A program made the translations under genes and the position numbers. This document shows, in pieces, positions 26,098 through 42,644 of a DNA stretch of 64,000 bases (positions within the stretch are counted from its first letter, which is position 1; each line of letters starts with the position of its first letter). The notes under the pieces were generated by a model that searched no databases, was not told the DNA's origin, and worked only from the letters and a program-made list of their open reading frames with translations. The stretch comes from Pseudomonadota bacterium (GTDB lineage: Bacteria; Pseudomonadota; Alphaproteobacteria; UBA1280; JAAZVW01): contig JAAZVW010000001.1 of the NCBI GenBank assembly GCA_018623135.1, positions 23,024 through 87,023 of the forward strand. The letters are read 5' to 3'.

Positions 26098-26172
26098 GGC
26101 CGAGTGGCGAAGTGGTAACGCTGCGGACTGCAAATCCGCCATGCATCGGTTCGAATCCGATCTCGGCCTCCA
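26098..26172 (+). tRNA. tRNA-Cys (anticodon GCA)
   Basis: Hand-folded cloverleaf. Acceptor ggccgag/ctcggcc, anticodon loop ctGCAaa, T-arm atcgg-ttcgaat-ccgat, U73 discriminator (Cys identity), encoded CCA. Confidence 0.85.
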
Positions 26173-26175
26173 TGT

Positions 26176-26251
26176 TCCCGCATAGCTCAGTTGGTAGAGC
26201 ACTTGACTGTTAATCAAGTTGTCACAGGTTCGAGCCCTGTTGCGGGAGCCA
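26176..26251 (+). tRNA. tRNA-Asn (anticodon GTT)
   Basis: Acceptor tcccgca/tgcggga, D-arm gctc-agttggtaga-gagc, anticodon loop ctGTTaa, T-arm acagg-ttcgagc-cctgt, G73, CCA. It lies 3 nt after tRNA-Cys. Confidence 0.85.
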
Positions 26252-26481: not shown

Positions 26482-28545
26482 TTGCTGATGTTTTCAAATC
26501 TTTCATTAAAGCATAAAATTTTATATGGCTTTATAACTGTGAGCCTTGTTCCGTTATTTATTGTTTCGGCGGCGACTTTTTTTGTATCGGTTGATGCACT
26601 TGAAAAAGAGGTTGAAAAAAAATTACATGCAACAACAATTGCTAAAAAAGAACATCTGGAGAGTTATTTTATTTTAGCGCAGCAGCAGCTTATTACTTGG
26701 GCGCGAGGCGGAACTTTTATAAAAGCGGTGCAAGAGTTTACGGTGGCGGTAAATGATTTGCGACCAGCTGATGAATTTTCTCCTAAATTAAAAGGGCGAT
26801 ATGGTTACCAAGAGACAAATACAAAAGATTTGGAAATTTCTGCTTTAAGGCGTTGGGAGCAAATCGATGGTATTGCTATTAAAATGCAGGACTTATATAT
26901 TGCCCAAAATTCAAATAAAGTTGGTGAAAAGCAAAAATTGTTAAATGCTAATGATGGTAGTAAATATTCGGCATTGCATGAAAAGTATCATCCTTATTTT
27001 AAAGATATTCAGCAAAAATTTGAGCTATATGATTTGTTTTTGATAGAGCCGAAAACGGGTCGTATTGTGTATTCTGTTTTTAAAGAATTGGATTATGGTA
27101 CCAAGCTTCTTTCAGGCCCTTATAAAGATTCAGGTTTGGGTGAGGTTGCAAAAAACGGGATTAAAGCGAAACCTGGGCAAATTGTAACATCTGATTTTAG
27201 AAGCTATGAGCCTTCTTATAATGATCAGGCTGCGTTTAGTTCTATCCCTATTTATGATAATGGTGAGCTTGTGGGTATTTTGGCTATTCAATTCCCGCTA
27301 GATAGGATTACTGCGTTGATGCATTCTCGTACTGGTATGGGAGAGACAGGGCATTTTTACTTTGTAGATGCAGAAGGTGAAATGAGAAATAATACTGTTT
27401 TATCAAAAGATTCAACGATTGGGTTTAAAATGGATAATAAAGCTGTTGAGCAGGTTTTAAGACGCGAAACGGGTATTATTAAAACAGTTGGTTACTCTGG
27501 AAATGAAGTGATAGCATCTTATGTGCCTATGGATATTAAAGGATTAAATTGGTTTTTAATTGCAGAGCAAGATATGTCGGAGGCTTTAGCTTCTGTGGAC
27601 TTTATGAAAATGGTTATTGTGATTGTGGTGCTGGTAACCGTAGGTTCTATTATGTTTTTAAGTATTGTTATAGGTAATAATTTGCAAAAGCCTTTTTATG
27701 ATTTAATGACAGAATTTGGTAGACTGGCTCAGTATGAATTGGATGCAAATCTTTCTGCTTTAGGGGGTAAAGAGATTAAAGAGCTTTCGGGGCGATTTAA
27801 TGGATTTATTGAGCGTTTGAATTCGATTGTTAAAAACGTTAAAAGCCTTTCTGATAATGTAAATGGCTCTTCTGATGGTATTTCTAAGCGTATGCAGCAA
27901 ATTAGCGAGTTAAGTGAGCAACAAATGCGTGCGGTTGGAGAGATTGAAAATGCTGTAGAAGGGGCAACTATTGTAACGGAAGAAATTAATAACTCAACAG
28001 CGCAGGCGGTGCAAAGTGCCTCTTATATTACAGAAAAAACAAGTTTAACATCTAATAATATGAGAGAGCTTTCTGACAGTGTTAAAAATATTACTGAGGT
28101 GATTGCTGTGATTAATGATATTTCGGATCAGACAAATTTGCTGGCTTTAAACGCGGCTATTGAGGCTGCTAGAGCTGGTGATGAAGGTAGAGGCTTTGCT
28201 GTGGTTGCAGAAGAGGTGCGTAAGCTTGCAAGTAACACAAGTGAATCCACACAGATGATTGCCGATACAGTTCAGAAACTTGTTGCCAAAAGTAAAGAAG
28301 CTGATGCTGCTATGCAGGAGATTCAGGATCAGGTTGCGCAGGTTGAGAAGGTGTTTAAAACTGTAGGTGAATCAGTGGATACACAATCTTCGATGATTCA
28401 ACAAATTAGTGCGAGTATGCATGAGTTTTCTAAAGCTGTGCAATCTGTAACCAATGATGTTGATGATGCAAATAAAGATAGTGAAAGAATGGCTGGTATT
28501 GCTAAAAATTTGAAGGATACAGTGAATATATTTAAAACGCATTAG
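26482..28545 (+). CDS. methyl-accepting chemotaxis protein with a large periplasmic (Cache-like) sensor
   Basis: TM1, a roughly 330 aa extracytoplasmic region, TM2, then [41 protein letters not shown]. Confidence 0.9.
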
Positions 28546-28565
28546 GTGTTTGTTGTTGTTTTAAC

Positions 28566-28632
28566 TTGACAAATGCCCCATTAATATGCTTTAATATTAA
28601 AAATCGCGGATTAAAACTCTGCGATTTTTTTT
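28566..28632 (+). promoter_or_regulatory. promoter-plus-terminator leader cassette, copy 1
   Basis: The cassette reads cTTGACAaatgcccca...TGcTTTAAT, then hairpin aatcgcggattaaaactctgcgatt plus a T8 run. The core is near-identical to the copy at 31018. Confidence 0.45.
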
Positions 28633-28696
28633 GTTTGTGATTGAGGTGTTTATTTGGTATACAGCTTATAACTTAATTATATCCCTTGGTGATATT

Positions 28697-29182
28697 ATGA
28701 CTTTTTTAATTTTGCGAACAAAATTTGCTTGGCTTAATAATATATCGATTGTTGTTTTTGTTCGATATTGGTTGTTTCAGGCCAAAATCCTTATGTGGAA
28801 GTATAATCCACCACAGTTTATTCTGGATAATCTTATTTTAGAATATGTGTATTACCATGAAGGTGTTGTAGAAGGCGCCGCAAGACCGCATTCTCATTTA
28901 TGGGATAGATTGAGATACGCGACCATTTTATTAACGGATGATGAAAAGCGTATTTATATTTTCTCTCGGAAAATGAGATGGAATTTATGGTGTGATTTTT
29001 GTTGTGAACCAGAGTTTGCCCGGTTTCATGCACATGGTTTACCAGGGCAAGGACCTGAAGATGAGGTTGCCAATATTTATTTTTGGTTTGAGCGTGATTA
29101 CCTTATTGTTTTTAAAAGGCTTATTGTTGCTTCATTTGCTTGTTTGGTAATGTCTTTACTGCTGTTTCTTGTGGGGCTGTAG
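28697..29182 (+). CDS. hypothetical Trp/aromatic-rich protein with a C-terminal hydrophobic anchor (start uncertain; the ORF opens at 28631)
   Basis: ORF immediately downstream of cassette 1. No recognisable domain. The C-terminus LIVASFACLVMSLLLFLVGL is TM-like. Confidence 0.3.
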   Translation: MTFLILRTKFAWLNNISIVVFVRYWLFQAKILMWKYNPPQFILDNLILEYVYYHEGVVEGAARPHSHLWDRLRYATILLTDDEKRIYIFSRKMRWNLWCDFCCEPEFARFHAHGLPGQGPEDEVANIYFWFERDYLIVFKRLIVASFACLVMSLLLFLVGL

Positions 29183-29199
29183 TTTTTAGCGAGTTATAA

Positions 29200-29239
29200 A
29201 CAAAGGTGGTGTGTGGTGCACTACCTTTGTTTTTTTTGT
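29200..29239 (+). terminator. intrinsic terminator
   Basis: caaaggtggtgtgtggtgcactacctttg followed by T8. Confidence 0.5.
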
Positions 29240-29330
29240 TATTTAAGCCACAGATATAAGGTTTTGTTGGTGGTAAAGCTTGATTATTATTTTAATTTAC
29301 AGCAGTATATTTTTAGAAAAATTGTAAAGG

Positions 29331-29675
29331 ATGATAAAGATGCTGCTTACAACAACATTTTATGTAGAAGGTTACCGTATTAGAAAGTATGGTCCTTTAG
29401 TGGCTGCCGAAGCTGTAATGGGTACCAACTTATTTAAAGATTACTTTGCAAAAGTACGTGATATTGTGGGTGGTCGCTCTGGTGCATTCCAGCAAGCGAT
29501 GTCGGAAGCCCGTGAAAATGTATTAATGGAAATACAGGAGCAAGCTCTTGAGATGGGATGCAATGCTGTTATTGGTATTGATATTGATTATGGCGAGGTT
29601 TCTGGTAAAGACAAAAACATGCTTATGGTTGCGGCACAGGGTACGGCTGTTTATATAGAACCTATAGAAGACTAA
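29331..29675 (+). CDS. YbjQ/UPF0145 family protein
   Basis: MLLTTTFYVEGYRIRKYGPLVAAEAVMGTNLF...GCNAVIGIDIDYGEV is the typical UPF0145 pattern. The protein is 114 aa. Confidence 0.8.
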   Translation: MIKMLLTTTFYVEGYRIRKYGPLVAAEAVMGTNLFKDYFAKVRDIVGGRSGAFQQAMSEARENVLMEIQEQALEMGCNAVIGIDIDYGEVSGKDKNMLMVAAQGTAVYIEPIED

Positions 29676-29692
29676 ATTTATATTTTAAGTAC

Positions 29693-29724
29693 AAAAAAAG
29701 CCCGCATTAAGCGGGCTTTTTTTG
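29693..29724. terminator. bidirectional intrinsic terminator
   Basis: aaaaaaagcccgcattaagcgggcttttttt lies between convergent genes. Confidence 0.7.
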
Positions 29725-29729
29725 TCGTA

Positions 29730-30164
29730 TTATAGTTGAAGAATTAGGGGTGCCAATTCTTCAATACTGCTGGGGTTGTGGTCGTACTTAACGGCGCCAC
29801 GTCTGAAAAATTCAGGTGTGTAAATGCAAATATGCATTTCTCGTGCACACCAGAATAAATCTGTATGGGTGCCGATAAAGACCGACTTTTGCCCTTTGTA
29901 GGGCTTGATCTTACTTAAAAGCTTTGGGAGATCTCGAGTCTCGTAATTGGGCAAAGTGTGTATAATTCGCCCAGCAGAGAGTAGATCAATACCGTTTTGA
30001 TAGTACTCTGTAATATCATCTCGGCTACGTGAGGTGCAGTAGTAAATTTCTCCGTTTTGCTGAAATTCTTTCAACATATTGATGAAATTTTCATTTATTT
30101 TACGGCTTTTACCCATAGTGTCGAGTAGGCCGTCAAGATCTATAAAAAGGGTATCATATTTCAT
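29730..30164 (-). CDS. HAD-superfamily hydrolase (putative nucleotidase-like); start taken at the internal ATG with RBS
   Basis: MKYDTLFIDLDGLLD carries the DxDG HAD motif I. IGTHTDLF is a motif IV-like Asp pair. AAGGA RBS lies before the ATG at 30164. The upstream 45 codons of the ORF are unlikely to be coding. Confidence 0.45.
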   Translation of the reverse strand: MKYDTLFIDLDGLLDTMGKSRKINENFINMLKEFQQNGEIYYCTSRSRDDITEYYQNGIDLLSAGRIIHTLPNYETRDLPKLLSKIKPYKGQKSVFIGTHTDLFWCAREMHICIYTPEFFRRGAVKYDHNPSSIEELAPLILQL

Positions 30165-30503
30165 GATAAATCCTTGTGAAGTTTTTTTAGTGAAAGGGAA
30201 TAAGGTTTGAGACTTATATATATGCTTTTTTTTTAGAATTTGTATAGTCTGACTTACAAAAAAATACAAATTAATGCGTGTTTTTTGATTTTTATGCAAA
30301 AATATACTTGCATAGGTTGTAAGTAATATGTATTATCCATCCTAGATTGGCATATACCTCTTTGAGGATATGACCGGGGTTATATAAATAATGAATATCG
30401 CACTTCTGCGATGTTCTTCTTCCATATACGTGTGTGAATGATTTGATGGGCTTGGCCTGCCTATTGTTGACGCATTTTGTTAATAAAAATAAGGAATATA
30501 AAC

Positions 30504-30995
30504 ATGGAATATCAATTTTCTTCTGCAAACCAAGCTTTAGATTGGACTGCGAACGTGCTAAGGAAAAAACTTTTTGCTCAGGTGAGCTCTGCTTATAGGT
30601 TTATTGAAAAAGAAGTGACAGATTTGCCTTCTGAAAGTAAAGAGTATAGCTTTTTACCTAGAAATGCTGAAGATGCTTATGATTTGGCGTTGGATATGGA
30701 TAAGTTATTAAGGTCTTTAGATGAAGAACATCATTTATTGTTGCGCATGAAGCATTGGGGTGATTTTTATACAGTCGATAAAATGAAAAAAGCTTTTGCA
30801 GAACAAGAGCTTTTGAGGCGCAAAGGTATTAGGGTGCGTGTAAGTTATCAGTATTCAAATCGTCAGATGGGTGTTTTGTTGGATTGTTGCCATAAAACTG
30901 TGCAACGTAAGTTGGCAAAAGCTTATCAGCAATTTGAAGAGCTTCTTATAAAAGAGGGGTATATTGCTGAAGTGAGTTATAAAAAATCTGCTTAA
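30504..30995 (+). CDS. putative phage-type late transcriptional regulator with sigma-70 region-4-like C-terminal HTH (RinA/ArpU-like or Q-like role)
   Basis: The C-terminus NRQMGVLLDCCHKTVQRKLAKAYQQFEEL resembles a sigma region 4 HTH. The gene sits directly upstream of the promoter-terminator leader of the terminase operon. The function is inferred from architecture only. Confidence 0.35.
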   Translation: MEYQFSSANQALDWTANVLRKKLFAQVSSAYRFIEKEVTDLPSESKEYSFLPRNAEDAYDLALDMDKLLRSLDEEHHLLLRMKHWGDFYTVDKMKKAFAEQELLRRKGIRVRVSYQYSNRQMGVLLDCCHKTVQRKLAKAYQQFEELLIKEGYIAEVSYKKSA

Positions 30996-31017
30996 ATAAA
31001 AAAAGATTATTTATATC

Positions 31018-31088
31018 TTGACAACTGCCCCAATATTCTGTATAGTAATTAAATAATCAGGAGAGCTAATAACAGCTCTCCTTTTTTT
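31018..31088 (+). promoter_or_regulatory. promoter-plus-terminator leader cassette, copy 2 (candidate late promoter with leader terminator before terS)
   Basis: cTTGACAactgcccca...TGTATAGT at 17 nt spacing. The predicted +1 is followed within about 7 nt by hairpin ggagagctaataacagctctcc plus T7, then the RBS aaggagg and the terS ATG at 31111. Confidence 0.5.
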
Positions 31089-31110
31089 ATGTCTAAAGGA
31101 GGTTGTTAAT

Positions 31111-31512
31111 ATGTTGACTAAAACAGGCTCTAAGATGAATCGTAAAATAAAACAAGAACTTATTACGATTTTAACAAATCCGGAACATGATGGATTATCC
31201 CAAAAAGAAATTGCTGAAAAAGTAGGTGTTTGCCGCGAAACTGTCTATAGATATTTAACGGCAGAGTTTTGGGCTGAGGTGCGCAGATTGCGTTTGGAGG
31301 TGATCTCCAAATCATTAGCTATGGTTGATAGAGCTTTATTTGAAAAAGCAGCAAAAGGCGATGTGCAAGCAGCTAAGCTGATTTACAGTAGGTGGGATAC
31401 AGAAGTAGAGCAAATTGAAAAGTTTCTGAGCTATGAACAGCTGGAACGATTAAATGAAGAGATTGCCGATGTGCAAAAACAAATTACAGAAATTGAAGAT
31501 ACAGCAGCTTGA
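31111..31512 (+). CDS. putative phage terminase small subunit (HTH-containing)
   Basis: HTH LSQKEIAEKVGVCRETVYRYL. 133 aa, immediately upstream of and overlapping the terminase large subunit. Confidence 0.45.
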   Translation: MLTKTGSKMNRKIKQELITILTNPEHDGLSQKEIAEKVGVCRETVYRYLTAEFWAEVRRLRLEVISKSLAMVDRALFEKAAKGDVQAAKLIYSRWDTEVEQIEKFLSYEQLERLNEEIADVQKQITEIEDTAA

Positions 31513-32854
31513 GTTGCTTAGTAAAAAGATAGAATTATATAAACAATACAATATTTTAAGGTACAAACCTTCAAGTAAACAGTTAAGTTACCATGATTTA
31601 GGCGCTCAGTACAAAGAGCGCCTTTTTTTGGCGGGTAACAGGTGTGGTAAAACTTTTTGTGGTGCGCAAGAAATGGCCATTCATTTAACGGGGCTTTATC
31701 CTAAATGGTGGCAAGGGCGTAAATTTGATAAATCTATTAGGGCATGGGCAGGATCGGTAACCGCTGAAAGCACACGTGATATTTTGCAGATTGCTTATTT
31801 AGGTGATGAAGATAGTTTTGGAGCAATACCTAAGGATTTAATTTTAAAGAAAACTTATAAAAAATCTGTTACTGATGCTATTGATTTTGTTTACGTGCGC
31901 CATGTAAGTGGTGGTGTGTCTAAATTGGGTTTTAAATCTTACGATCAGGGGCGTGAAAAATTCCAAGGTACGAGTAGGCATGTGATTCATTTAGACGAGG
32001 AACCTGATTTACGTTTATATGAAGAGTGTTTAATGCGAACGATGGATTGTGATGGGTTAATTATGTTAACGATGACGCCCCTTAAGGGGATGTCGGATGT
32101 CTGTTTACATTATTTGGATGAAGCGGCAAGTGATAAAGTTTATGTGCAGGCAACTTGGGAAGATGCGCCGCATTTGGATAAGTCTGAAATTGAAAAAATG
32201 CGTAAATCATTAAGGCCGCATGAGCGTGAGGCACGCGAAAAAGGGATTCCAAGTTTAGGATCTGGTCGTGTATTCCCGATTAAGGAGGAAGAGGTTCTGA
32301 TAGATAAAGAGCATATTCCTAAAGATTTACCTTTGGCAGCGGGTATGGATTTTGGTTGGCATAACCCTACTGCGATTGTTTGGGGTGCTTATGATAAGGA
32401 TGCGGATGTTCTGTACATTGTAGATAGTTACAAAGCTTCTGAAAAAACGCCAGAGCAGCATGCTTTGGTTCTTAAAGAAAAGGGGTTGTGGATACCTGTT
32501 GCTTGTGACCCAGCAGGACAAGCTGTGAGTCAAAAAGATGGGGAATCCCTAATGCTGGCGTACGAAAAGCAAGGGGTGTATTTGAATAAGGCAAATAACT
32601 CTGTTGAGGCGGGTTTAATGGAGATGCTTGAGCGGATGCGTTCTGGCCGGTTAAAAATTGCGAGCCATTTAACAGCATGGTTTGATGAGTTTAGATTGTA
32701 TCGGCGCAACGAACGAGGCGTGATTGTTAAGGATAATGACCATTTAATGGATGCGAGTCGTTATTTGGTTGTTTCTGGTTTAATGCTTGCGAAGCATAAA
32801 CCCTGCGTAAAAGGCAAAATTATACAAAGAAAGTTAGATTGGGTAACTCTTTAA
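31454..32854 (+). CDS. phage terminase large subunit (start uncertain; alternative TTG at 31514)
   Basis: Walker A-like GNRCGKT and Walker B-like VIHLDEEPD, with a C-terminal nuclease-like region. The protein is 466 aa. Confidence 0.75.
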   Translation: MKRLPMCKNKLQKLKIQQLELLSKKIELYKQYNILRYKPSSKQLSYHDLGAQYKERLFLAGNRCGKTFCGAQEMAIHLTGLYPKWWQGRKFDKSIRAWAGSVTAESTRDILQIAYLGDEDSFGAIPKDLILKKTYKKSVTDAIDFVYVRHVSGGVSKLGFKSYDQGREKFQGTSRHVIHLDEEPDLRLYEECLMRTMDCDGLIMLTMTPLKGMSDVCLHYLDEAASDKVYVQATWEDAPHLDKSEIEKMRKSLRPHEREAREKGIPSLGSGRVFPIKEEEVLIDKEHIPKDLPLAAGMDFGWHNPTAIVWGAYDKDADVLYIVDSYKASEKTPEQHALVLKEKGLWIPVACDPAGQAVSQKDGESLMLAYEKQGVYLNKANNSVEAGLMEMLERMRSGRLKIASHLTAWFDEFRLYRRNERGVIVKDNDHLMDASRYLVVSGLMLAKHKPCVKGKIIQRKLDWVTL

Positions 32855-33186
32855 TGGAAATTAATCAGAAAATAATATCGGTAGGTGCGCAAGCGCCTAT
32901 TTTTTTTGCGCCAGATGTTGATTGTGTTGATGTGAAAATAACAAGTAAAAACACTTTTAAAGCAAATGTTTATATTGGTTATTCTAAACCAACATCTTAC
33001 AAAAAAATAAGAGATAAGGAAGGGCTGGTTTTGCTTTCTGGTCGTGCAATAGATGGAGATTATATTGGCGAAATATTAGCGCAGCCTAAGTACTTATTTA
33101 TGAATGTAAGTGAGATAACGGAACCCATTGAAGTTGTTTTAATAACCCATAAACAAAATGTAGAGCAAAAGGATATGGCTGCATGA
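32839..33186 (+). CDS. hypothetical small phage protein
   Basis: ORF between terL and the portal gene with overlapping stop/start. No recognisable domain. Confidence 0.3.
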   Translation: MGNSLMEINQKIISVGAQAPIFFAPDVDCVDVKITSKNTFKANVYIGYSKPTSYKKIRDKEGLVLLSGRAIDGDYIGEILAQPKYLFMNVSEITEPIEVVLITHKQNVEQKDMAA

Positions 33187-34874
33187 GTACATATATAAAA
33201 GATAAATCGCAAATAGAGCAGGATGTATTAACAAAGGTTAAGGGTTATTTTGAAAAAGCTTATATGAACCCTATTTACCAAAAATGGTATACCTCTGCCC
33301 TTAATAATTGGCGTTTTTACGAAGGTGACCAATGGGCTGAAGAAGAGATTGATGCTTTAAGTGAAAAAGGCCAACCTGCGATAGTGATTAATAAAATTGC
33401 GCCGAAAATTGATAATTTATCGGGTGTTGAAGTTGCTGGACGCACACGGGTTGTTTATAGGTCTCGTTCTGGTGATGTGGAAGAAGAAAAAAAGGCGCGC
33501 CAACTTTCCGATGTGGCGTTGTATGTTGCAGAAAAAGCCGCGCAGGATGTGGAGGTTTCTTTTGCCTTTAAAGCGGGTTTAATTACTGGTATGGGGTGGT
33601 TAGACGTTGGTGTAGAACCCGCGGAAGAAGGCCCACGTATATTTAATACCGCAGAAAATGAACTTGATGTTGTTTGGGATACTCATGCTAAGCAGGATGA
33701 TTACTCTGATGCCCAGTTTGTGTGTAGACAACGTTGGTTGGGTGAGGCTGAGTTTAATAGATTGTTCCCGAAGCATAAAGGCGTTTTTGTAAATGGTGAA
33801 GCTCAGCTTTATGCGGCTGTTGATCAGGGCTTTTTAAGTAAAGAACCTGAGATTGGTTATGTAGATGCTGAGCGAGAGCGTGTACGTGTTGTAGAGGTGC
33901 AGTATAAGCAAATGGCAAAAGAATATAAGGTTACGCTTGAAACAGGTGAGATTTTTGTAACTTTTGATAAAGCAAAAGCGCAGATTACAAATGCTAAGGT
34001 TGAACAGGCTTATAAGCCAAGGGTTTATGTGGCTTATTATGTAGGTGACACTTTACTTTCTCATCAGCCATTAAACTATGCCCACGGCATGTTTACTCTA
34101 GTACCTTTTTATTTTAAGCGAGAACGACAAACAGGCTGCCCTTATGGTTTAGTAAAAGCGGCGATTGATCCGCAACGTGAGTTTAATAAGAGACGCTCTA
34201 AAGCAATGCATTTACTGAATACGGCACAGGTGATTGCAGATGTTGATGCGGTAGATGATCCGCAAGTTTTAGCAAGAGAGGCTGCAAGACCTGACGGTAT
34301 TATACTTAAACGACCAGGTAAAGACTTACGGATTATGCGTAATACTGACCTTGCTGCGAGCCAGGTTTCTGTTATGGAGAAAGCCTCTTACGATATTCAG
34401 GAAGTTATGGGTGTTTTTGATGAAGCTATGGGGCAAAAGACCAATGCGACTTCTGGTGCGGCGATTCGGGTGCGTCAGCAAGCAAGCAATATGAACCAAA
34501 TGTTTGCATACGATGCTTTAAGGCGTACGAAGAAAATTTTAGGTGTGCAGATTATGTCTCATATTCGACAATTTTTTAATAACAACATGATGATGCAAAT
34601 TACAGACAGCTTTTTACCAAAAGATGAAATTAGGCTCACAACCACGGCGGGGGAGCCTTTGACAATGCTGGATGTAAGAACCAGTCATTTTGATGTGCAT
34701 GTGGAAGAGGTGAAGGATGTGCATAGCTCGAGAGAGTTGGAGTTGGATCAACTGGAGGCGTTAAGGCAGGCTGGGATACCTGTACCTGCGGAAATGCTTA
34801 TTGATGCAACAAGCTTAAAAGATAAAGAAAAGCTAAAAAAATATTTAGCTGAACAACAAAATAAGGAGCATTAG
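33183..34874 (+). CDS. putative phage portal protein
   Basis: 563 aa, positioned right after terL and before the scaffold and capsid genes. Acidic composition fits a portal, and the start overlaps the previous stop (atga). Confidence 0.55.
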   Translation: MSTYIKDKSQIEQDVLTKVKGYFEKAYMNPIYQKWYTSALNNWRFYEGDQWAEEEIDALSEKGQPAIVINKIAPKIDNLSGVEVAGRTRVVYRSRSGDVEEEKKARQLSDVALYVAEKAAQDVEVSFAFKAGLITGMGWLDVGVEPAEEGPRIFNTAENELDVVWDTHAKQDDYSDAQFVCRQRWLGEAEFNRLFPKHKGVFVNGEAQLYAAVDQGFLSKEPEIGYVDAERERVRVVEVQYKQMAKEYKVTLETGEIFVTFDKAKAQITNAKVEQAYKPRVYVAYYVGDTLLSHQPLNYAHGMFTLVPFYFKRERQTGCPYGLVKAAIDPQREFNKRRSKAMHLLNTAQVIADVDAVDDPQVLAREAARPDGIILKRPGKDLRIMRNTDLAASQVSVMEKASYDIQEVMGVFDEAMGQKTNATSGAAIRVRQQASNMNQMFAYDALRRTKKILGVQIMSHIRQFFNNNMMMQITDSFLPKDEIRLTTTAGEPLTMLDVRTSHFDVHVEEVKDVHSSRELELDQLEALRQAGIPVPAEMLIDATSLKDKEKLKKYLAEQQNKEH

Positions 34875-34876
34875 GC

Positions 34877-35419
34877 GTGGAAGAGCTTAATAAACCCAAG
34901 ATGATGCAATTAAGGGAATTGTTTTCAGGTAAAAAAACACCTGAGGCAAAAGAAGCCCAGAATATTGAAACTGCACAAGAAACATTAGCAGATGATTATG
35001 CTGATGTACCAGCTGCGTTGATGCAAAAAATTCAGCAGACAGAGCCTTTGGTTCGGCAAGTGCTTGCGCTTGTGCAAGTAGATTATGATGCGCTTATTAA
35101 AATGGATGGGAAATCACCTTATGCGCAAGCAATTAAAGCAAATAAAAATGTGCTTAATGAAGTTGCTAAGGCGGATAATCCTGTGCTTAGGGCGTTGGAA
35201 ATTTCTTTAAAATACAAACCAATTGCGGAATTTAAAGAAAAATATGGCAATACGCCTGATGATATTAAACAAAAAATGAAGCAAGAACTTATGGAAGAAA
35301 TGGCGAGAAAAGAAGTGCCGACACAAAACCTTGCACAGATGGAGTTTAATAAAAAATCTGCTGAGAATGTGAAAAGTACAGAACAAGATGTACAAGAATT
35401 AAACAAATTTTTTAAATAA
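34877..35419 (+). CDS. putative scaffolding protein
   Basis: Acidic, helical/coiled-coil 180 aa protein between the portal and capsid genes. Confidence 0.4.
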   Translation: MEELNKPKMMQLRELFSGKKTPEAKEAQNIETAQETLADDYADVPAALMQKIQQTEPLVRQVLALVQVDYDALIKMDGKSPYAQAIKANKNVLNEVAKADNPVLRALEISLKYKPIAEFKEKYGNTPDDIKQKMKQELMEEMARKEVPTQNLAQMEFNKKSAENVKSTEQDVQELNKFFK

Positions 35420-35445
35420 TAAATTACTTTAAAAGGATTTTATAA

Positions 35446-36480
35446 ATGGTTGCTACTATTGAAAAAACACATGGTGTTTCTGCTCAAAAATGGTCGGAAG
35501 AAGTCTTTTCTGAATATTTAGGGCAAAACCCTTTTTATAACTTTATGGGTACAACATCTAATAATGTGATTCAGGTAAAAGAAGAGCTTACAAAAGCACC
35601 TGGTGATGCGATTACAGTTCAATTACGTGCGCGCTTAACAGGAAATGGTGTTGCTGGTGATGCGAAACTTAAAGGTAATGAAGAAGATTTGATTTTTCAT
35701 GACCAAAAGATTTCGGTAGATACATTGCGTCATGCTGTTATTTTGCGTGGTGAAATGTCTGAAAAACGTGTGGCATTTGATTTGCGTAACCAAGCGCGCG
35801 AGGCTTTGGTGGATTGGTCTAACAATAAGTTACGTCACTCCATTATTTCTGCTTTAACGGATACATCTAAGGGGCGTGATGCTTCTCGTTATATGTATGG
35901 TGCTACGGATGCAAATTTTGATGCAGACCATGCGACAGCACTTGCAAATGTGGATGCAACAGCAGATAAGCTTACAACAAAAATGATTTCTGTTGCTAAG
36001 CGTAAGGCAATGCTTGAGGGTAGCCGAAAAGTACGCCCGTTTACGCATAAAAAAGGTAATAAAACAGAAGAGCTTTATGTGTTATTTGCACATCCTTATG
36101 CTGTGCGTGACTTAATGGAAGACCAGTCTTTTAAAGATGTAAACACGCAAATTCCGACAACTTTTGATGATTCTGTATTGGTGCATGGTCAGCGTTACAA
36201 AGGTATGTGGGACGGCGTTATGATTTTTGAATGCGAAGAAATGCCAGTAGATGCAGCCGCAGGTGCTGCGGGTGTAGATGTTGCGCATAATGTACTTTGT
36301 GGTGCACAGGCTGTTGCCCTTGCTTACGGTAAGCGCACAAACTATAAAGAAGATTCGGATGATTATGGCCATGAAAATGGTTTTGCGATTGACGAAATTC
36401 GTGGTGTAGAGAAGCTTGTGTTTAATGGCATTGACCATGGTGTTGTGAATATGTTTGCGGTTGCTGAATCTGACCAGTAA
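35446..36480 (+). CDS. putative major capsid protein
   Basis: 344 aa, located after the scaffold gene, with RBS aaaggatt. Terminator-like hairpin downstream. Confidence 0.55.
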   Translation: MVATIEKTHGVSAQKWSEEVFSEYLGQNPFYNFMGTTSNNVIQVKEELTKAPGDAITVQLRARLTGNGVAGDAKLKGNEEDLIFHDQKISVDTLRHAVILRGEMSEKRVAFDLRNQAREALVDWSNNKLRHSIISALTDTSKGRDASRYMYGATDANFDADHATALANVDATADKLTTKMISVAKRKAMLEGSRKVRPFTHKKGNKTEELYVLFAHPYAVRDLMEDQSFKDVNTQIPTTFDDSVLVHGQRYKGMWDGVMIFECEEMPVDAAAGAAGVDVAHNVLCGAQAVALAYGKRTNYKEDSDDYGHENGFAIDEIRGVEKLVFNGIDHGVVNMFAVAESDQ

Positions 36481-36499
36481 AAATATAAAGCTAAAACGA

Positions 36500-36535
36500 A
36501 AATGGGGCACTCAAAAAAATTGGGTGCCCTTTTTA
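36500..36535 (+). terminator. possible intrinsic terminator after the capsid gene
   Basis: ggggcac ... gtgccc stem followed by ttttt. The loop is rather large. Confidence 0.35.
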
Positions 36536-36547
36536 TGGAGTTTTACA

Positions 36548-37162
36548 ATGAATGTACTTGATTTACAAAAACAGGTAACCAGTTTAAGCCATCAGGAAGA
36601 TAGCTTAAATTCTGGTTTAAAAATGAAATCGCTCCAATGGTTAAACCATGCATATCAGGAAATTATGGAAGAGATTGCGCCGTTTTTATCTGAAATTTAT
36701 ACAAAAATGGTTGATTTAACGTTAGATGAGCTTGGCCGAGCTGTTTTACCAGATGATTTTTATAAAATTGAGAAGGTCTTTCTTTCTGGTACAGAGTTAC
36801 CAAAGCTAACAATTGCTGAAGCTGTGATTGCAGAGGATAAAAAAGGTTATTGGTTAGAGCGTAACTATATACACATTTTACCTAAAAACACTGTTGGTCA
36901 TTTAGTTATGTTATACCAATCGACAATTCCGAAATTAACGGAAAGTAGTTTGGAAGAGGATATTTTGATACCTAAAAACTTCCATTATGCCTTGGTTTGG
37001 GGTGCTCTTGTATGGGCATCGGTTCAGGAGCGTGGGTTTTCAGCGCAATCAGATTTGAAATTATTTCAGCAAAAATGGTTAGAAGCTAAGCAAAGTCTTA
37101 AACTTTCTTTAGCCAATAGAGCTGATCAGAAGTTAAGCGTTGCGCCTTCTGAAAATTTTTAA
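36548..37162 (+). CDS. hypothetical virion protein (possible head-tail adaptor / tail tubular A-like)
   Basis: ATG at 36548 (MNVLDLQKQ...). 204 aa. The call rests on position after the capsid gene. Confidence 0.3.
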   Translation: MNVLDLQKQVTSLSHQEDSLNSGLKMKSLQWLNHAYQEIMEEIAPFLSEIYTKMVDLTLDELGRAVLPDDFYKIEKVFLSGTELPKLTIAEAVIAEDKKGYWLERNYIHILPKNTVGHLVMLYQSTIPKLTESSLEEDILIPKNFHYALVWGALVWASVQERGFSAQSDLKLFQQKWLEAKQSLKLSLANRADQKLSVAPSENF

Positions 37163-37590
37163 GCCTTTTTAGATCTGGTATTTTTGGCTTCTTTAGAAGG
37201 TTTTTTCAGAAATTTATTTAAGTTTTCAACGCCGATAGACATTTCTGAAACTAAAGAGTTACGCTGGTTTGTCATTTCTGATTTAAAGCAGCTTTCAAGG
37301 TCTTTAAGTGTCTCTAATCTGATTTGGTCGTTAATTTCAGGTAAGAGATAAATAAAAGAACTTTGTTTTTCAAATTCATTTTTTACAAGAGGATGGTTTT
37401 GGAAGTGTTGCTCAAAATTAGCGCAAGTGCCCATGCCTTTAATGTAATCCATACTTAATCCATAAGGGTTTGAATTGCATTCAATAATAAAATAAACACC
37501 ACCACACTTAGGTAGAGTAAAATTACCTTTAGGATTAAAAACACTAAATAAATGCTTTTTTTGTTTACCAGATACCGAAATGGTGGCCAT
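37159..37590 (-). CDS. opposite-strand moron ORF, possibly GIY-YIG/T5orf172-like
   Basis: RBS agggag before the ATG at 37590. The motif GGVYFII...YIKGMGTCANFEQHFQNH weakly resembles the GIY-(10 aa)-YIG...R..H core. This is the only reverse-strand gene inside the structural module. Confidence 0.3.
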   Translation of the reverse strand: MATISVSGKQKKHLFSVFNPKGNFTLPKCGGVYFIIECNSNPYGLSMDYIKGMGTCANFEQHFQNHPLVKNEFEKQSSFIYLLPEINDQIRLETLKDLESCFKSEMTNQRNSLVSEMSIGVENLNKFLKKPSKEAKNTRSKKA

Positions 37591-37704
37591 TGGCTTAACT
37601 CCCTTTAACTCGCTTATAAGTAAAATTATGATAAATACACTCATTAAGTGCAATTACTAATTGGAGTTAGCTAATAAGAGTAATAAATATGAAGAAGGAT
37701 AATT

Positions 37705-39465
37705 ATGAGTCGTATTGAAGAATTTAAGTTACCTTTTCCACCTAAGTTAATGTCTACAGATAAGAGTCCTGCAACAATGGGTGCAAGTTATGCACGTGAG
37801 ATTGTAAATATGTACATAGACCAAGATGGAGCAGGTTCTAAGCGAGGCGGATTTTCTTGCATTGTAAGAGATACGATAAACGATGATATTGTGAAGCTTG
37901 TTGAATTTGTACCTACAACGGGAGATAAACAGCTTTTGGCTTTTTGCGCATCGGGCGATGTTTTGAAAAAGGTGAATGATGCGTGGGAACTTGTTGACGC
38001 ACCCTTTAGCGCAATAACAAATTTAAGTAGTGTTGAATTTGGTAACAAACTTATTTTAGCTAATGGTGTAGACCCTGTAAAAAGTTGGGATGGAACATCT
38101 TTTAACGATTTAGAACAGGAGATATATGACTTTAGTGACAGTTTGAGTATTGAAAATACAACGATCATTAAAGTAAACAGTGACATAAGCTTGTATAAAC
38201 CTGGTACGAAATTAAAACTGATGTTGGAAGATGAAAATACGGCTGAAGTAACAGTTGTATTAACAGATGTGCTAAGTGCCACTGAAGATGATAATGGCTT
38301 TATAGATGTTGAATTAACAGATGCTGTGGCTGTGGGGATACTAAAAAATGTATCGGTTTATTTAAAACCACCCGCCTTTAGAAGTTTGTATGTATGCCAA
38401 GACCGTTTATGGGGTATGGGGGAAGGTGCTTTTAGCACGACAGAATATAGTAATTTAGCGACCCGAGGGGTCGTTTTTTTTACGCAAGCAGGCACAAACC
38501 CTAATGATTGGTATACGGATACGGGGGCTCTTTCTTACATTGATTTAACAATGAAGATGCCGATGAATGACGAATTGGTTTCTATGGCAGAAAAAGATGG
38601 TCTGATTCTGTTTTTGTTTAAAAAGAATATGCAGATTTGGAAAGGTTATAACCCTTCGGAACAGGGGAGCTTTGGTTGGTATAAAACATTGCCTGTTGGG
38701 GTGGTGCATCCGGAGCTTATTCTTTCTTTACCAAATGATTTGGCTTTTTTTACATCGTCGGGCGCGCGGAGTTTAAGTCGTATTTTACAAACAGAACAAT
38801 TAGATGTAACTGATTTTGCTAGAGATATAGACCCGAGCATACTCGCTGCTATAGAACATATTAAACAAAACCCTGATGCTAAGGTGGGTCGGTTTACTTA
38901 TGAAAAAGAAGGTTGGTATGCCTTTAAGCTTGGGCAAGATGTTTTTGTGTTTCAGACCAACGGTAGTTCTTATGGTTGGAGCAAATTTACGGGGCTATTT
39001 GCAGAAGCAACGGCTTTTTTAAACACACGAGATGCAGGGTTATATATTGCCAAGGGTAGGTGTTTGTACCAATACGAACCCAATACATACAGTGATGATG
39101 ATGTGCCCATAAAAACAAAATGGTGGACGCCTTGGTTACGTATTAATACTAAGAATAAAAGGTGGGCGAATAAATATGTATCGGTTATTACGGAGCAAGG
39201 TGTTTATATGCCGATAGAGGTGAAACGCTATAAAGACTACGATAGTTTTTCTTACCATAAATTAGAAACGGCGCAGATGTCTTCCCCGAGTTATATGGAT
39301 ACGGCTTATTGGGATACAAATACCTGGCAGGGTTTTAATGCGCAGGCCGCTAAAAAAGAAGATAAATTTATTTGCCAGATTTTTTCTTACGCAGTGGAGA
39401 CGGAATCAATTAAAGGACCATTTAAAGTACATGGTTTGACAATACAGGGGATTATAGAAAGATGA
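37705..39465 (+). CDS. putative tail protein (tail tubular/tailspike-like)
   Basis: 586 aa, located between the adaptor-like gene and the tail-fibre gene. No tape-measure-like gene is present in the module. Confidence 0.4.
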   Translation: MSRIEEFKLPFPPKLMSTDKSPATMGASYAREIVNMYIDQDGAGSKRGGFSCIVRDTINDDIVKLVEFVPTTGDKQLLAFCASGDVLKKVNDAWELVDAPFSAITNLSSVEFGNKLILANGVDPVKSWDGTSFNDLEQEIYDFSDSLSIENTTIIKVNSDISLYKPGTKLKLMLEDENTAEVTVVLTDVLSATEDDNGFIDVELTDAVAVGILKNVSVYLKPPAFRSLYVCQDRLWGMGEGAFSTTEYSNLATRGVVFFTQAGTNPNDWYTDTGALSYIDLTMKMPMNDELVSMAEKDGLILFLFKKNMQIWKGYNPSEQGSFGWYKTLPVGVVHPELILSLPNDLAFFTSSGARSLSRILQTEQLDVTDFARDIDPSILAAIEHIKQNPDAKVGRFTYEKEGWYAFKLGQDVFVFQTNGSSYGWSKFTGLFAEATAFLNTRDAGLYIAKGRCLYQYEPNTYSDDDVPIKTKWWTPWLRINTKNKRWANKYVSVITEQGVYMPIEVKRYKDYDSFSYHKLETAQMSSPSYMDTAYWDTNTWQGFNAQAAKKEDKFICQIFSYAVETESIKGPFKVHGLTIQGIIER

Positions 39466-40727
39466 GTAAGAAGTTTCAACGTCCGTTAGAAGTATATGAG
39501 GGCGACTCTAACCTTTTATATAGAGATAAATACCAAGTAGATGCTGTGGCTGAGCCACCAGTACCCATTTCTAGCGAGAAGATTGATGGCGACTTTAATT
39601 ACTTAATAGACGTAGTTAATGAGATAAATGCAGCAGCTGGAAGTTATAACAGTATTGCAGAGCGATTAGATAAAGCGCTAAATGCAGACGGTACACTTAA
39701 AAGCAGTATTGAAACGACTTTAGAGGAGTGGGTTACTTTATTACCTGAAGAGATAGAGTACGTAGCTGCCAATAGGTTTAATATACAGGGGGATAAAACA
39801 AACCTTTTAACGATAGGTAGGGTTTTAAAATCTGCATTGTTAACCTTAGAGCGTACAGCTGTAATTATTGAGAGTTTATATAATAGTTCTTCTGATAAGA
39901 CAGAGATTTTATTATCGGCTGATATTTGCTTAAACGATACTGACGTAAAATATTTATATAGCTCATATACACCTAGTGCTGTGCCAATTTGTTCAGATAG
40001 ACTGTATGCCTATACAGACACGACAGAAGCCTCGGTTGATTTTAAAAATGATACTGCGGCTGCTAAGGTTGCTTTAAATGGTAATAGTCTTTCTGTTGTG
40101 TTTAACATGGGAGATTTACTTAACCCAAATTGGCAAAGTGCTTTAGAAATTACCAATACAGGTTTGGATGGTGCTGGCATTAAGGATGCTTCTATTGATG
40201 CGCAAAAACTCGCAAGTGGTGTTTTAGGTACTGTGGCCTCTAAAAATACAGGTGTGGAAGTAGGGGAAGTTCCTTTATTGCAGGCGGGTGGTGTGCTTGA
40301 TACAGCTGTGTTGCCTACTATGGGTGCACCTGTTGGTTCTGTGGGTTTGTTTGTGACAGAATCATCGGTACCTAGTAATTACCTTATTTTAAATGGTGCG
40401 GTGTTTGATGAAACTTTATACCCAGAGCTGTACCAACTTTTAGGAGATTCTAACCAATTACCTGATTGGCGTGGTTATTTTGTGAGAATGTCGGATATGG
40501 GGCGCGGTGTTGATACTGGCCGTGTTACGGGCAGTTTTCAGGAGGATGCTCTTAAAAGCCATAGTCATGAAGTTTACGCTTATGCCAATGGTTCTGGTTT
40601 TTCTAATATTTCTAGCTATGGTTCTAACGGTACGGCAGGAGCTGTTGTAAAAGATACAGAAGCAGTTGGTGATGCAGAGACAAGACCTAAAAACGTTGCT
40701 GTTGTTTATGCAATTCGTGCTGAATAA
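39462..40727 (+). CDS. phage tail fibre protein with C-terminal tail-collar domain
   Basis: NGAVFDETLYPELYQLLGD...WRGYFVRMSDMGRGVDTGR matches the phage tail collar pattern (L.cnG...s...Yp.Lf..lG...lPDlRGrf). Confidence 0.6.
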   Translation: MSKKFQRPLEVYEGDSNLLYRDKYQVDAVAEPPVPISSEKIDGDFNYLIDVVNEINAAAGSYNSIAERLDKALNADGTLKSSIETTLEEWVTLLPEEIEYVAANRFNIQGDKTNLLTIGRVLKSALLTLERTAVIIESLYNSSSDKTEILLSADICLNDTDVKYLYSSYTPSAVPICSDRLYAYTDTTEASVDFKNDTAAAKVALNGNSLSVVFNMGDLLNPNWQSALEITNTGLDGAGIKDASIDAQKLASGVLGTVASKNTGVEVGEVPLLQAGGVLDTAVLPTMGAPVGSVGLFVTESSVPSNYLILNGAVFDETLYPELYQLLGDSNQLPDWRGYFVRMSDMGRGVDTGRVTGSFQEDALKSHSHEVYAYANGSGFSNISSYGSNGTAGAVVKDTEAVGDAETRPKNVAVVYAIRAE

Positions 40728-40733
40728 GGAATA

Positions 40734-41150
40734 TTGAAGATGATAAAATTTGTAGATGTTTATGCTTATAATGAGCAAGGCTTGTATGTAGGTTGCGTTT
40801 CGGCTCAAAAAGATAAAAAAGGGCAAGTAATGTTACCTGCAGGTGCGACAGAAAAAGAGCCTCTCGTATCAATTGAGGGCTGTGATGTTGTTTTTGACGG
40901 TAATAACTGGGTTTATGTGCAAAAAGAAGCTGAGAGCCCAGAGGAGCCTATTCGTGATGAGGGTGATGTGTCTTATAAAGAAAAAAGGGCAGCAGCCTAT
41001 CCTTTTGTTGGTGATCAGCTAGATGCCATTTATAAAGGCTTAAAAGAGTTAAGTAAAACAGTTGCTATGCCAAATGATGTTGAGAGTTGGTTTGCTCAGA
41101 TTGAAGCTGTTAAAGCCATGTTCCCTAAAGATGAAGGGAGTAGTGCATGA
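40734..41150 (+). CDS. putative tail fibre assembly protein
   Basis: 138 aa, immediately after the tail-fibre gene. The N-terminus VDVYAYNEQGLYVGCVSAQ is Tfa-like. Confidence 0.4.
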   Translation: MKMIKFVDVYAYNEQGLYVGCVSAQKDKKGQVMLPAGATEKEPLVSIEGCDVVFDGNNWVYVQKEAESPEEPIRDEGDVSYKEKRAAAYPFVGDQLDAIYKGLKELSKTVAMPNDVESWFAQIEAVKAMFPKDEGSSA

Positions 41151-41581
41151 TTAAGAAAATGCCATTTCACCAACTGCCAAGGTTGTATTTTTTAATGAAA
41201 GAAGTTTCGTTCCCGAATGTGGAGCAAGGCTTGTGGCGTTGTCTATGGGATTTACTTTATGTTGATGTGTATGCTGTTTATAAAGAAGGTCGCTTAATTG
41301 CGGCCTTTATTTATGGGCAAGATGGTATGAACGGTGCTTTTTTAGATTTAGTGGCCGCGCAGAATCAGCAAAAAATATGGCTAAATAAAACAGTACTTAA
41401 AAGCATTTTAGAGCAGGCACAAAAATATTCTGTTTTATGGGTAGAACCTAAAAATAGTCATGCATTAAGACTGTGTTTGAAGGCAGGTTTTAAAATGGTG
41501 GAAGGTTGTTTTACCAACCCCTTACTTGTAACAACACCAAAGCAATTACAAACCAGATTTAATAAAAATAATAAGCTTTAA
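41147..41581 (+). CDS. possible GNAT-family acetyltransferase-like protein
   Basis: The C-terminal ...ALRLCLKAGFKMVEG weakly resembles GNAT motif B. Confidence 0.25.
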   Translation: MIKKMPFHQLPRLYFLMKEVSFPNVEQGLWRCLWDLLYVDVYAVYKEGRLIAAFIYGQDGMNGAFLDLVAAQNQQKIWLNKTVLKSILEQAQKYSVLWVEPKNSHALRLCLKAGFKMVEGCFTNPLLVTTPKQLQTRFNKNNKL

Positions 41582-42630: not shown

Positions 42631-42644
42631 AGGACTGAAATATT

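Follow-up and report, generated by a model that had tools for sequence, protein, structure and literature searches.

Processive antitermination of the Q/AlpA type offers the closest described counterparts of the locus reported here. AlpA of Pseudomonas aeruginosa acts at two target promoters, alpB and PA0807, through an AlpA-binding element (ABE) placed between the -35 and -10 boxes; a -10-like hexamer, CACGAT, occupies -1 to +5, a terminator follows the PA0807 transcription start site by 26 bp, and several terminators are bypassed (PMC7969949; PMC9371919). In CcGTA, a gene transfer agent (GTA) of Caulobacter, GafZ carries a sigma-like helix-turn-helix (HTH), its binding element (ZBE) is found in the spacer that separates the -35 and -10 boxes, and terminators within the GTA cluster are bypassed (PMC11150451). 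In BaGTA of Bartonella, BrrG is served by a constitutive TTGACA-N17-TATCAT promoter, a required -10-like element and an attenuating leader (bioRxiv 10.1101/2024.11.20.624540). We analysed a stretch of 64,000 nucleotides, hereafter the window (contig JAAZVW010000001.1 of assembly GCA_018623135.1, positions 23,024-87,023 of the forward strand; GTDB lineage Bacteria; Pseudomonadota; Alphaproteobacteria; UBA1280; JAAZVW01), in which two similar promoter-then-terminator cassettes precede a set of phage-like head, tail and lysis genes. A 163-amino-acid (aa) protein, the candidate regulator (hereafter the regulator), is encoded directly upstream of the second cassette. With moderate confidence, we read the two cassettes as loading sites for processive antitermination of the Q/AlpA type and the product of 30504-30995 as the likely antiterminator. 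All support is computational, consisting of sequence architecture, conservation and co-occurrence with a protein family; promoter activity, pausing, binding and antitermination are predicted from the architecture.

The locus is like that of AlpA in being chromosomal, in joining one small regulator to two promoters, in having a spacer element, close terminators and a hexamer resembling a -10 box that spans about -1 to +5, and in having lysis genes among the predicted targets. The plan of an N-terminal segment followed by a C-terminal HTH, seen in AlpA, 21Q, lambda Q and 82Q (PMC9371919), is common to the regulator as well. Unlike AlpA, however, the regulator has an HTH that is sigma-region-4-like with an insert of about 25 aa, and no sequence homology between the two proteins is detectable; a chain of the AlpA-loaded complex, 7xyb_G, ranked first among the Foldseek matches in the PDB without being significant (E = 0.8, TM 0.29). 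The hairpin here begins at about +2 to +7, so that far less transcript precedes it than in the AlpA system, and the target is a complete head-tail-lysis cluster. The lambdoid phages (lambda, 82 and 21), with their PR'-QBE-tR' layout built on a Q-binding element (QBE), likewise have the regulator gene directly 5' of a strong constitutive late promoter, an element embedded in that promoter, a sigma-dependent pause element and a terminator before the late genes, features that recur here with promoter activity and pausing as predictions, and the podoviral lambdoids share the P22-like portal. The window protein differs from lambdoid Q in having no match to PF03589, PF06323 or PF06530 and no apparent Zn finger; the leader is 30-37 nt compared with 194 nt in lambda, and the late operon starts with terS, the terminase small-subunit gene, rather than with lysis genes, with no early or replication region present.

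Likeness to GafZ and to the C-terminal domain of GafA (of RcGTA), drawn from description and cis logic only, lies in a sigma-factor-like HTH protein, a spacer element, a domesticated cluster and, by prediction, the bypassing of terminators inside that cluster. CcGTA also needs GafY and IHF for initiation at a degenerate -35 (PMC11150451), whereas the -35 here is consensus; CcGTA is siphovirus-like and alphaproteobacterial, whereas the present cluster is podovirus-like and was tentatively placed by us in other Pseudomonadota. With BrrG, the locus shares a near-consensus promoter, a -10-like element, an attenuating leader, a capsid operon as target and, by prediction, an antiterminator that binds at the promoter. 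BrrG is structurally Q21-like, which is not demonstrated for the window protein, and the BaGTA leader is long whereas the leader here is minimal. It is because the cis layout matches the dissected Q, AlpA, BrrG and GafZ promoters that we read the cassettes as antitermination loading sites.

Two cassettes that join a promoter to a terminator

The two cassettes, all on the forward strand, consist of the following parts.

28565-28632, forward strand: cassette 1, with cTTGACAAATGCCCCA at 28565-28580, then the -10 box, hairpin and T8
28566-28571, forward strand: -35 box TTGACA of cassette 1, followed by the embedded element AATGCCCCA at 28572-28580
28590-28595, forward strand: -10 box TTTAAT of cassette 1, 18 nt from the -35 and preceded by TGC (TGC-TTTAAT, 28587-28595)
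28599-28604, forward strand: -10-like hexamer AAAAAT of cassette 1, at the predicted start site
28599-28629, forward strand: terminator hairpin of cassette 1 (core 28603-28625), with a T8 tract ending at 28632
31017-31089, forward strand: cassette 2, with cTTGACAACTGCCCCA at 31017-31032, then the -10 box, hairpin and T7
31018-31023, forward strand: -35 box TTGACA of cassette 2, followed by the embedded element ACTGCCCCA at 31024-31032
31041-31046, forward strand: -10 box TATAGT of cassette 2, 17 nt from the -35 (11/12 in the promoter scan)
31052-31057, forward strand: -10-like hexamer AATAAT of cassette 2, at about -1 to +5, with the predicted +1 near 31053
31059-31082, forward strand: terminator hairpin AGGAGAGCT-N6-AGCTCTCCT of cassette 2, with a T7 run at 31082-31088
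31096-31102, forward strand: ribosome-binding site (RBS) AAGGAGG of terS, 3' of cassette 2, with the terS ATG at 31111

An initial annotation had described the same architecture at 28566-28632 and 31018-31088, with spacers of 18 and 17 nt and a GC-rich hairpin plus T-run within about 7 nt of +1, and this agrees with our reading of the sequence, the promoter scan and RNA folding. The hairpins start at about +2 (copy 1) and +7 (copy 2), are both flagged as terminator-like by the scan, and fold as RNA with -13.1 kcal/mol (z = -5.1) and -14.9 kcal/mol (z = -4.9), respectively. It described both -10 boxes as extended; TGC precedes TTTAAT in copy 1, but copy 2 is no canonical extended -10, as TG abuts TATAGT with no spacer base. 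Copy 2 does stand directly before the RBS and ATG of terS, and copy 1 before an open reading frame (ORF) of unknown function that is rich in Trp and without a family match. Beyond what had been described, each cassette has another -10-like hexamer where transcription is predicted to start. The TTTAAT of cassette 1 lacks the A at position 2 and is absent from the promoter-scan list; in its orthologues, the -10 box is TATCAT and TAGTAT at 17-nt spacing.

The motif TTGACAA[A/C]TGCCCCA occurs as TTGACAAATGCCCCA at 28566-28580 and as TTGACAACTGCCCCA at 31018-31032, both on the forward strand. When further copies were sought, these two sites remained the sole matches of the 15-mer with 2 mismatches allowed; the counts apply to the 64-kb window of the host genome. 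Against the two exact copies observed, 0.003 are expected per shuffle (300 dinucleotide shuffles) and 0.0002 analytically. The relaxed patterns TTGAC-N3-5-G-Y-Y-C-C and CCCCA-N19-20-MATART gave no extra copy in the window, and TTGAC-N5-CCCCA added one match, at 6094, without cassette features. These figures bear on the idea that the cassettes are a product of chance, or that TTGACAAnTGCCCCA is a generic, genome-wide promoter type unrelated to the element, which could draw on the fact that only 64 kb of the genome was scanned. The full cassette pattern, searched in 185,579 species genomes, produced just three matches, mutually homologous coding stretches of Firmicutes without a hairpin, which we rejected as chance, and it had no match in the viral collection. 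A relaxed pattern matched 30 times in the JGI metagenomes, where the sole terminator-bearing match, and the only genuine one (contig L026), adjoins a regulator homologue and ybjQ; none of the other 29 adjoins a homologue of the regulator, of terS, terL or portal genes or of ybjQ, and we rejected them as unrelated sequence. Two other species have both copies in orthologous places, and three further loci (L006, L014 and L026) keep the design. With both cassettes kept at orthologous positions in L001 and L002, their resemblance is not, on comparative grounds, a matter of chance, and the generic-promoter idea is scarcely credible.

Related loci were reached through the regulator. A word-index search found two relatives with about 65% identity, on contigs L001 and L002, and an exhaustive hidden Markov model (HMM) search of 1.84 billion proteins found a family of 59 cluster representatives; contexts were recovered for relatives with 26-39% identity (L006, L007-L013, L014, L026, L046 and L047). 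The comparison set comprised 12 loci, the window and 11 related ones. Cassette 1 has orthologues at 1564-1631 of L001 and 4427-4496 of L002, and a distant copy upstream of the L026 ybjQ gene; those of cassette 2 lie in L001 from 3413, L002 from 6845, L006 from 923 and L014 at about 1401-1466.

Nine terminator-bearing cassettes follow one design: both copies in the window, L001 and L002, and one each in L006, L014 and L026, which takes the design down to loci with 36% regulator identity. In all nine, TTGAC is followed after 5-6 nt by CCCCA and then by a -10 box, and the embedded element (A/C/T)-x-x-CCCCA, directly 3' of TTGAC, is present in these nine and in a terminator-less L014 copy, six loci in all. 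The -10-like hexamer (CATAAT, CATAGT, CATACT, AATAAT or AAAAAT) has an invariant A2 and T6 in 9/9, is separated from the -10 box by 5 nt (by 3 nt in cassette 1 of the window) and stands 19 nt from CCCCA in seven of the nine, 18 and 20 nt in the other two. The L014 genome, with 58% GC, retains the AT-rich core TATGAT-TTAAT-CATAATC. Hairpins of -9.6 to -16.6 kcal/mol (eight cassettes folded) are followed directly by a run of T6-8; their sequence varies by locus, and a stable hairpin plus U-tract is always kept. Among L001, L002 and the window, the promoter halves are nearly identical between copies, and each copy keeps its own hairpin type, TCGCAG/CTGCGA in copy 1 and AGGAGAGC/GCTCTCCT in copy 2. 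Since these copy-specific types are kept in all three, the cassette duplication predates the three species.

Several smaller features accompany the cassettes. In close loci, T7-ATGC(C/A)nAAAGG is conserved after the terminator; a mini-ORF starting from the ATG after the T-run was considered and rejected, since the reading frame is not conserved. We also rejected a pac site or terS-binding repeat, position and strand logic suiting a promoter better. In L014 alone, an inverted repeat at 1376-1416, GGGGCGCTG / CAGCGCCCC, spans the post-regulator T-run and the -35/CCCCA of cassette 2. No Rfam family matched either cassette or the 5' region of the regulator gene.

The short terminated transcripts invite another explanation, also raised initially, in which the cassettes are small-RNA genes whose 30-37 nt products act in trans, instead of or besides leader control. 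A strong promoter joined to a terminator would yield an abundant short RNA, and a precedent exists in StxS, the terminated PR' transcript of Stx phages (PMC7547250), which is likewise a by-product of a constitutive late promoter that is terminated at once. StxS, however, is longer and has a defined trans function, whereas the RNA predicted here is barely more than the terminator hairpin. The hairpin sequence, moreover, differs between copies 1 and 2 and in L006, L014 and L026, with structure alone kept; Rfam gave no match, and the site immediately 5' of an RBS points to a cis role. We therefore regard small-RNA genes as very improbable, although by analogy the 30-37 nt RNAs could have a StxS-like side role.

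The position of CCCCA in the promoter spacer, a common place for repressor binding, might also suggest an operator for an unidentified repressor, with the hairpins as ordinary terminators of the chemoreceptor (methyl-accepting chemotaxis protein, MCP) and regulator genes and with expression through derepression and leakiness. Partial CCC-N7-GGG symmetry in L001 cassette 2, both L002 cassettes and L014 cassette 1 fits such a site, and both window hairpins are the sole terminators of their upstream genes, cassette 1 being the only terminator 3' of the chemoreceptor gene (stop at 28545). The symmetry is absent from both window copies, however, and no repressor gene is associated with the element. 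A repressor would also leave unexplained the -10-like hexamer in fixed register with CCCCA, the promoter-then-terminator order in all loci and the conserved internal terminators, and we consider it improbable.

Terminators beyond the leader and the case for processivity

In the antitermination switch that we propose, the cassettes would be paralogous loading sites of a system that switches on a chromosomal, phage-derived head-tail-lysis cluster. In the off state, the near-consensus sigma-70 promoters would probably be constitutive, and an intrinsic terminator starting at about +7 (copy 2) or +2 (copy 1) would limit the default product to an RNA of 30-37 nt, leaving terS and everything after it silent. 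In the on state, the 163-aa protein would bind A-A/C-T-G-CCCCA between -35 and -10 via its sigma-region-4-like HTH, engage RNA polymerase while the -10-like hexamer at the start site keeps it in a sigma-dependent pause, and then travel with the polymerase, which would thereby resist the leader, post-terL and post-capsid terminators. Through cassette 1, the switch would also govern ybjQ and the Trp-rich ORF, and read-through from this cassette might reach the regulator gene, giving positive feedback.

Comparative evidence from gene order, internal terminators and cis layout favours the processive-antitermination leader that had been suggested from the window alone, where a dedicated activator was the other option named and the product of 30504-30995 was pointed to as the factor. 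A terminator lies between the regulator gene and terS in 12/12 loci, with no room for a promoter after it, and the order regulator, promoter, terminator, terS holds in 11/12; the remaining locus, L026, keeps the terminator and has its promoter 1.3 kb upstream. In L026 (2200-3760, reverse strand), the promoter-plus-terminator cassette occurs only upstream of ybjQ and a terminator stands alone between regulator and terS, so that 1.3 kb and at least two terminators separate promoter from terS. As this locus has no promoter between regulator and terS, terS would be reached only by read-through that begins 1.3 kb or more upstream. In L006, three terminators separate the promoter from terS, two of which flank an insert of two genes. 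That insert, at 900-1690 between cassette and terS, encodes a 124-aa protein with an SAA-like match and a 46-aa ORF, and is flanked by duplicated hairpin-T7-ATGCC(T)AAAGGAGG units.

Two further terminators lie inside the window cluster.

32880-32909, forward strand: intrinsic terminator 25 nt after the terL stop, followed by T7-8
36505-36534, forward strand: terminator after the capsid gene, found also in L006, L008, L011 and L013 (5 loci in all)

The post-terL terminator is present in 8/8 loci covering the site, with compensatory changes in 5/9 stem pairs. It sits inside a conserved small ORF (32854-33186) that begins at the terL stop (TAATG) and encodes ..VGAQAPIFFAP..; with the hairpin inside this ORF across eight loci, RNA structure and T-tract appear to be kept within coding sequence. 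The layouts of L006 and L026, taken with the conserved internal terminators, would call for processivity. Elsewhere in the window, nearly all terminator-like hairpins lie where genes end, a weak one at 49018 being the exception. Three strong sense-strand hairpins with T-runs were also seen inside terL (31600-31623), the gene for a 586-aa protein (38457-38475) and the gene for a 144-aa protein (41287-41306); the terminator scan detected no counterparts of these three at the equivalent sites of relatives.

The distant TARA-type loci vary this layout. Their -35 starts at the regulator stop codon, TGA/TAA-ATTGACTTTTGTCC, and the terminator, which immediately precedes the RBS of terS, comes about 45-100 nt after the promoter, so the transcript must hold the whole hairpin.

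The putative 163-aa regulator and the activator alternative

The regulator combines an N-terminal helix with the family motif ALxWxTEVLRxRRFP, a WGD motif and a C-terminal sigma-region-4-like HTH. In a confident AlphaFold model built on a 50-sequence alignment (pLDDT 88.9; an earlier 3-sequence model was poor, pLDDT 56), a long conserved helix at the N terminus is joined by a disordered linker to a C-terminal bundle of helices that is sigma-4-like. Pfam gave no match to the window protein at E <= 0.01, and no Pfam or PHROG model covers the family. In family-level counts on 50 members, Sigma70_r4_2 matched 22/50 and TIGR02937 matched 39/50, the latter confined to the C-terminal half (positions 86-163 of a profile of 165). 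Foldseek retrieved sigma-4 domains with a probability of up to 0.87, and the BFVD matches include ECF-sigma-like and DUF1492 phage proteins. For sigma region 2, no Sigma70_r2 appeared in the 25 families that the 50 members hit most often, and the model contains no equivalent. By sequence and model, sigma region 4 is thus the only similarity of the regulator that appears well supported.

Comparison with the Q families, like the Foldseek match to the AlpA complex, gave weak hints of a relationship. PF06530 was touched by 3/50 members (best E = 0.0085), and hhalign against the QuuD/Q21 family was co-linear over 104 columns (P = 0.0015, 17% probability) with a Q21 profile that is shallow, its homologues being too similar; a PDB profile search returned no Q or AlpA chain. 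Within the regulator family, the predicted HTH recognition helix co-varies with the element, HKT(V/A)xR(K/R) accompanying CCCCA and YKKAERE accompanying TTTTGTCC, in a comparison that covers two or three clades only.

The sigma-region-4 similarity raises the alternative that the 163-aa protein is an activator or initiation factor of sigma-region-4 type, RinA/ArpU/DUF1492-like or a partial sigma factor, that turns on the TTGAC-CCCCA promoters, with the hairpins as leaky attenuators or insulators whose main effect would be to end the genes upstream. The RinA/ArpU/DUF1492 late regulators of Gram-positive phages are needed for expression of packaging and lysis genes and are described as initiation activators. 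They too are small sigma-region-4-like proteins encoded directly upstream of terS, which is the typical place of late activators, and the DUF1492 match in BFVD adds to the likeness, as does the sigma-4 similarity being the sole well-supported one in fold and sequence. The CCCCA promoter of L014 that has no terminator would also suit an activator. The regulator nevertheless had no sequence match to these proteins in Pfam and PHROG searches, and their targets are not known to carry a consensus sigma-70 promoter running into a terminator. The promoters here are near consensus in both boxes, with 17 nt between -35 and -10, whereas activator-dependent or alternative-sigma-dependent promoters usually lack such boxes, and the protein is without a sigma-region-2-like part. 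An initiation factor, furthermore, cannot overcome a terminator, and one is kept before the first gene in 12/12 loci, with three in L006 and with 1.3 kb and two in L026. A related candidate, in which transcription starts inside the hairpin from an alternative CCCCA/CATAAT promoter, was rejected; the hairpin lies about 45-100 nt downstream in some loci, which makes such a start impossible in the distant group, and a sigma-2 part is missing. The consensus boxes, the promoter-then-terminator order and the L006 and L026 layouts thus argue against an activator, and we judge that alternative unlikely.

Several observations nonetheless weigh against antitermination as well. Copy 1 of the window has a weak -10 (TTTAAT, no A2) and a shifted -10-like hexamer, both window terminators double as 3' ends of upstream genes, and the CCCCA-type promoter upstream of ybjQ in L014 has no terminator. 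In the distant TARA group, the predicted start site carries no -10-like hexamer. Ordinary phages, too, commonly have terminators behind their capsid genes, and the sigma-region-4 similarity suits an initiation factor or activator equally well. The failure to detect membership of the regulator in a Q family (PF03589, PF06323, PF06530) or a relationship to AlpA counts in the same direction.

Genomic setting of the cluster and its significance

Around the cassettes, the window has the following genes and sites.

26482-28545: dCache chemoreceptor (MCP) gene, upstream of cassette 1
28655-29182, forward strand: Trp-rich ORF, from a TTG at 28655 after GAGGTG (the longest ORF starts at 28631); no family
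29331-29675, forward strand: ybjQ (YbjQ family, PF01906), with a bidirectional terminator after it at 29698-29718
29730-30164, reverse strand: HAD-like gene, an insert limited to the window clade (window, L001 and L002)
30308-30336, forward strand: predicted promoter-like site 1 of the regulator gene, TTGCAT-17-TATTAT, conserved
30347-30374, forward strand: predicted promoter-like site 2 of the regulator gene, TTGGCA-16-TATGAC, conserved, with the palindrome TATACCTC-TTT-GAGGATAT in its spacer
30504-30995, forward strand: regulator gene (163 aa), no Pfam or PHROG match
31111-31512, forward strand: terS, by family match
31454-32854, forward strand: terL, T4-type, by family match
33183-34874, forward strand: P22-like portal gene, by family match
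between the portal and capsid genes, forward strand: gene for a 180-aa protein
35446-36480, forward strand: major capsid protein gene (Phage_capsid_3), by family match
36455-43207, forward strand: rest of the module, with an SU10-type adaptor, the 586-aa protein, a collar-domain tail fibre, small ORFs and an amidase
37159-37653, reverse strand: the single reverse-strand ORF in the module
42812-43207, forward strand: amidase gene, the last of the module, before tRNA-Ser

The Trp-rich ORF is present in L002, absent in L001 and followed by a terminator at 29200-29230. The imperfect palindrome at promoter-like site 2 occurs also in L002, L006 and L014 and is, from its sequence, a candidate operator for the trigger of the switch. 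A 5' leader of about 130-170 nt, without an Rfam match, follows the promoter-like sites of the regulator gene.

The module, about 12 kb long (31111-43207), holds head, tail and lysis genes. The other ORFs scanned in the window are of housekeeping type (transketolase, aldolase, TolC, a TonB receptor, type IV pilus/type II secretion system, a hybrid kinase, TatC and SerRS) or without a family. Integrase, repressor and replication genes are absent from the family matches of the ORFs scanned across 64 kb, among which no dedicated integrase search was made, and on TARA contigs of up to 842 kb no integrase or replication family was likewise among the matches. The gene content matches that of a GTA, a structural and lysis cluster among host genes without integrase, replication or lysogeny genes in our scans. 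By its genes, the module is a stand-alone structural and lysis cluster amid housekeeping genes and not the late region of a complete prophage; we call it GTA-like and podovirus-like on gene content and synteny. A phage-inducible chromosomal island (PICI) or capsid-forming PICI (cf-PICI) was rejected, as the ORFs scanned include neither an integrase nor a replication gene and as fibre and lysin are encoded in the cluster itself. The window portal is at most 29% identical to any INPHARED phage portal, and the 163-aa protein has no homologue among the INPHARED phages (50,697 phage genomes). Protein-guided scans with the three close regulators gave no match in genome, viral or metagenome contigs. 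tRNA-Cys and tRNA-Asn lie at 26098-26251, 2.3 kb 5' of cassette 1, and tRNA-Ser at 43598-43687, 0.4 kb after the amidase gene; these flanking tRNAs may be relics of a past integration at a tRNA gene.

L001 and L002 are syntenic with the window in the order chemoreceptor MCP, (Trp-rich ORF), ybjQ, HAD-like gene (reverse strand), regulator, terS and terL. Every sufficiently long locus has the order ybjQ, regulator, terS, terL, small ORF, P22 portal, a protein of about 190 aa, capsid and SU10 adaptor. Synteny is kept in three close and about six distant loci, and the regulator (163-200 aa, with a sigma-region-4-like HTH) is directly upstream of terS in 12/12. The clusters lie on chromosomal contigs of up to 842 kb and are flanked by unrelated host genes (DsbD, GGDEF-EAL, PheA, ClpP). 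The copies in L007 (terL split, 9122-10489) and L012 (portal and capsid genes split, 10859-14233) appear to be decaying, assembly errors being possible.

Upstream of the regulator gene, ybjQ occurs in every locus with upstream sequence (window, L001, L002, L007-L014, L026, L046 and L047; the L006 contig has no such sequence), directly adjoining it except in the window clade, where the HAD-like insert intervenes. Because the other flanking host genes differ between loci, ybjQ seems to be part of the element. In L001, L014 and L026, ybjQ is preceded, with no gene between, by a promoter of CCCCA type, and in L026 both ybjQ and the regulator gene would be inside the controlled unit. On gene order and conservation, these loci form one family of particle-gene clusters that derive from phages, reside in chromosomes and have ybjQ and a dedicated regulator as companions.

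More tentatively, and with clearly less confidence than in antitermination itself, we suggest that the 163-aa protein may found an undescribed family of processive antiterminators derived from sigma region 4, which would act on a minimal cassette with its hairpin at +2-7 and gate a new GTA-like, podovirus-type cluster, integrase-less and fixed in the chromosome, in Pseudomonadota outside the Alphaproteobacteria, with YbjQ as an obligatory partner.

If the antitermination reading is true, the cassette would be the most compact promoter-pause-terminator loading site known, with a default transcript of about 35 nt, and a regulator unrelated in sequence to Q, AlpA and BrrG would offer a test system for how late in the initial transcript an antiterminator is still able to load. 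It would also bear on whether recruitment of sigma-region-4-like domains as antiterminators, as proposed for GafZ, has happened repeatedly. The arrangement of ybjQ, regulator, TTGAC-N5-CCCCA cassette and terS provides an annotation signature for such clusters. The proposed gating of GTAs by antitermination would then extend beyond the Alphaproteobacteria to a podovirus-like cluster in marine metagenome assemblies.

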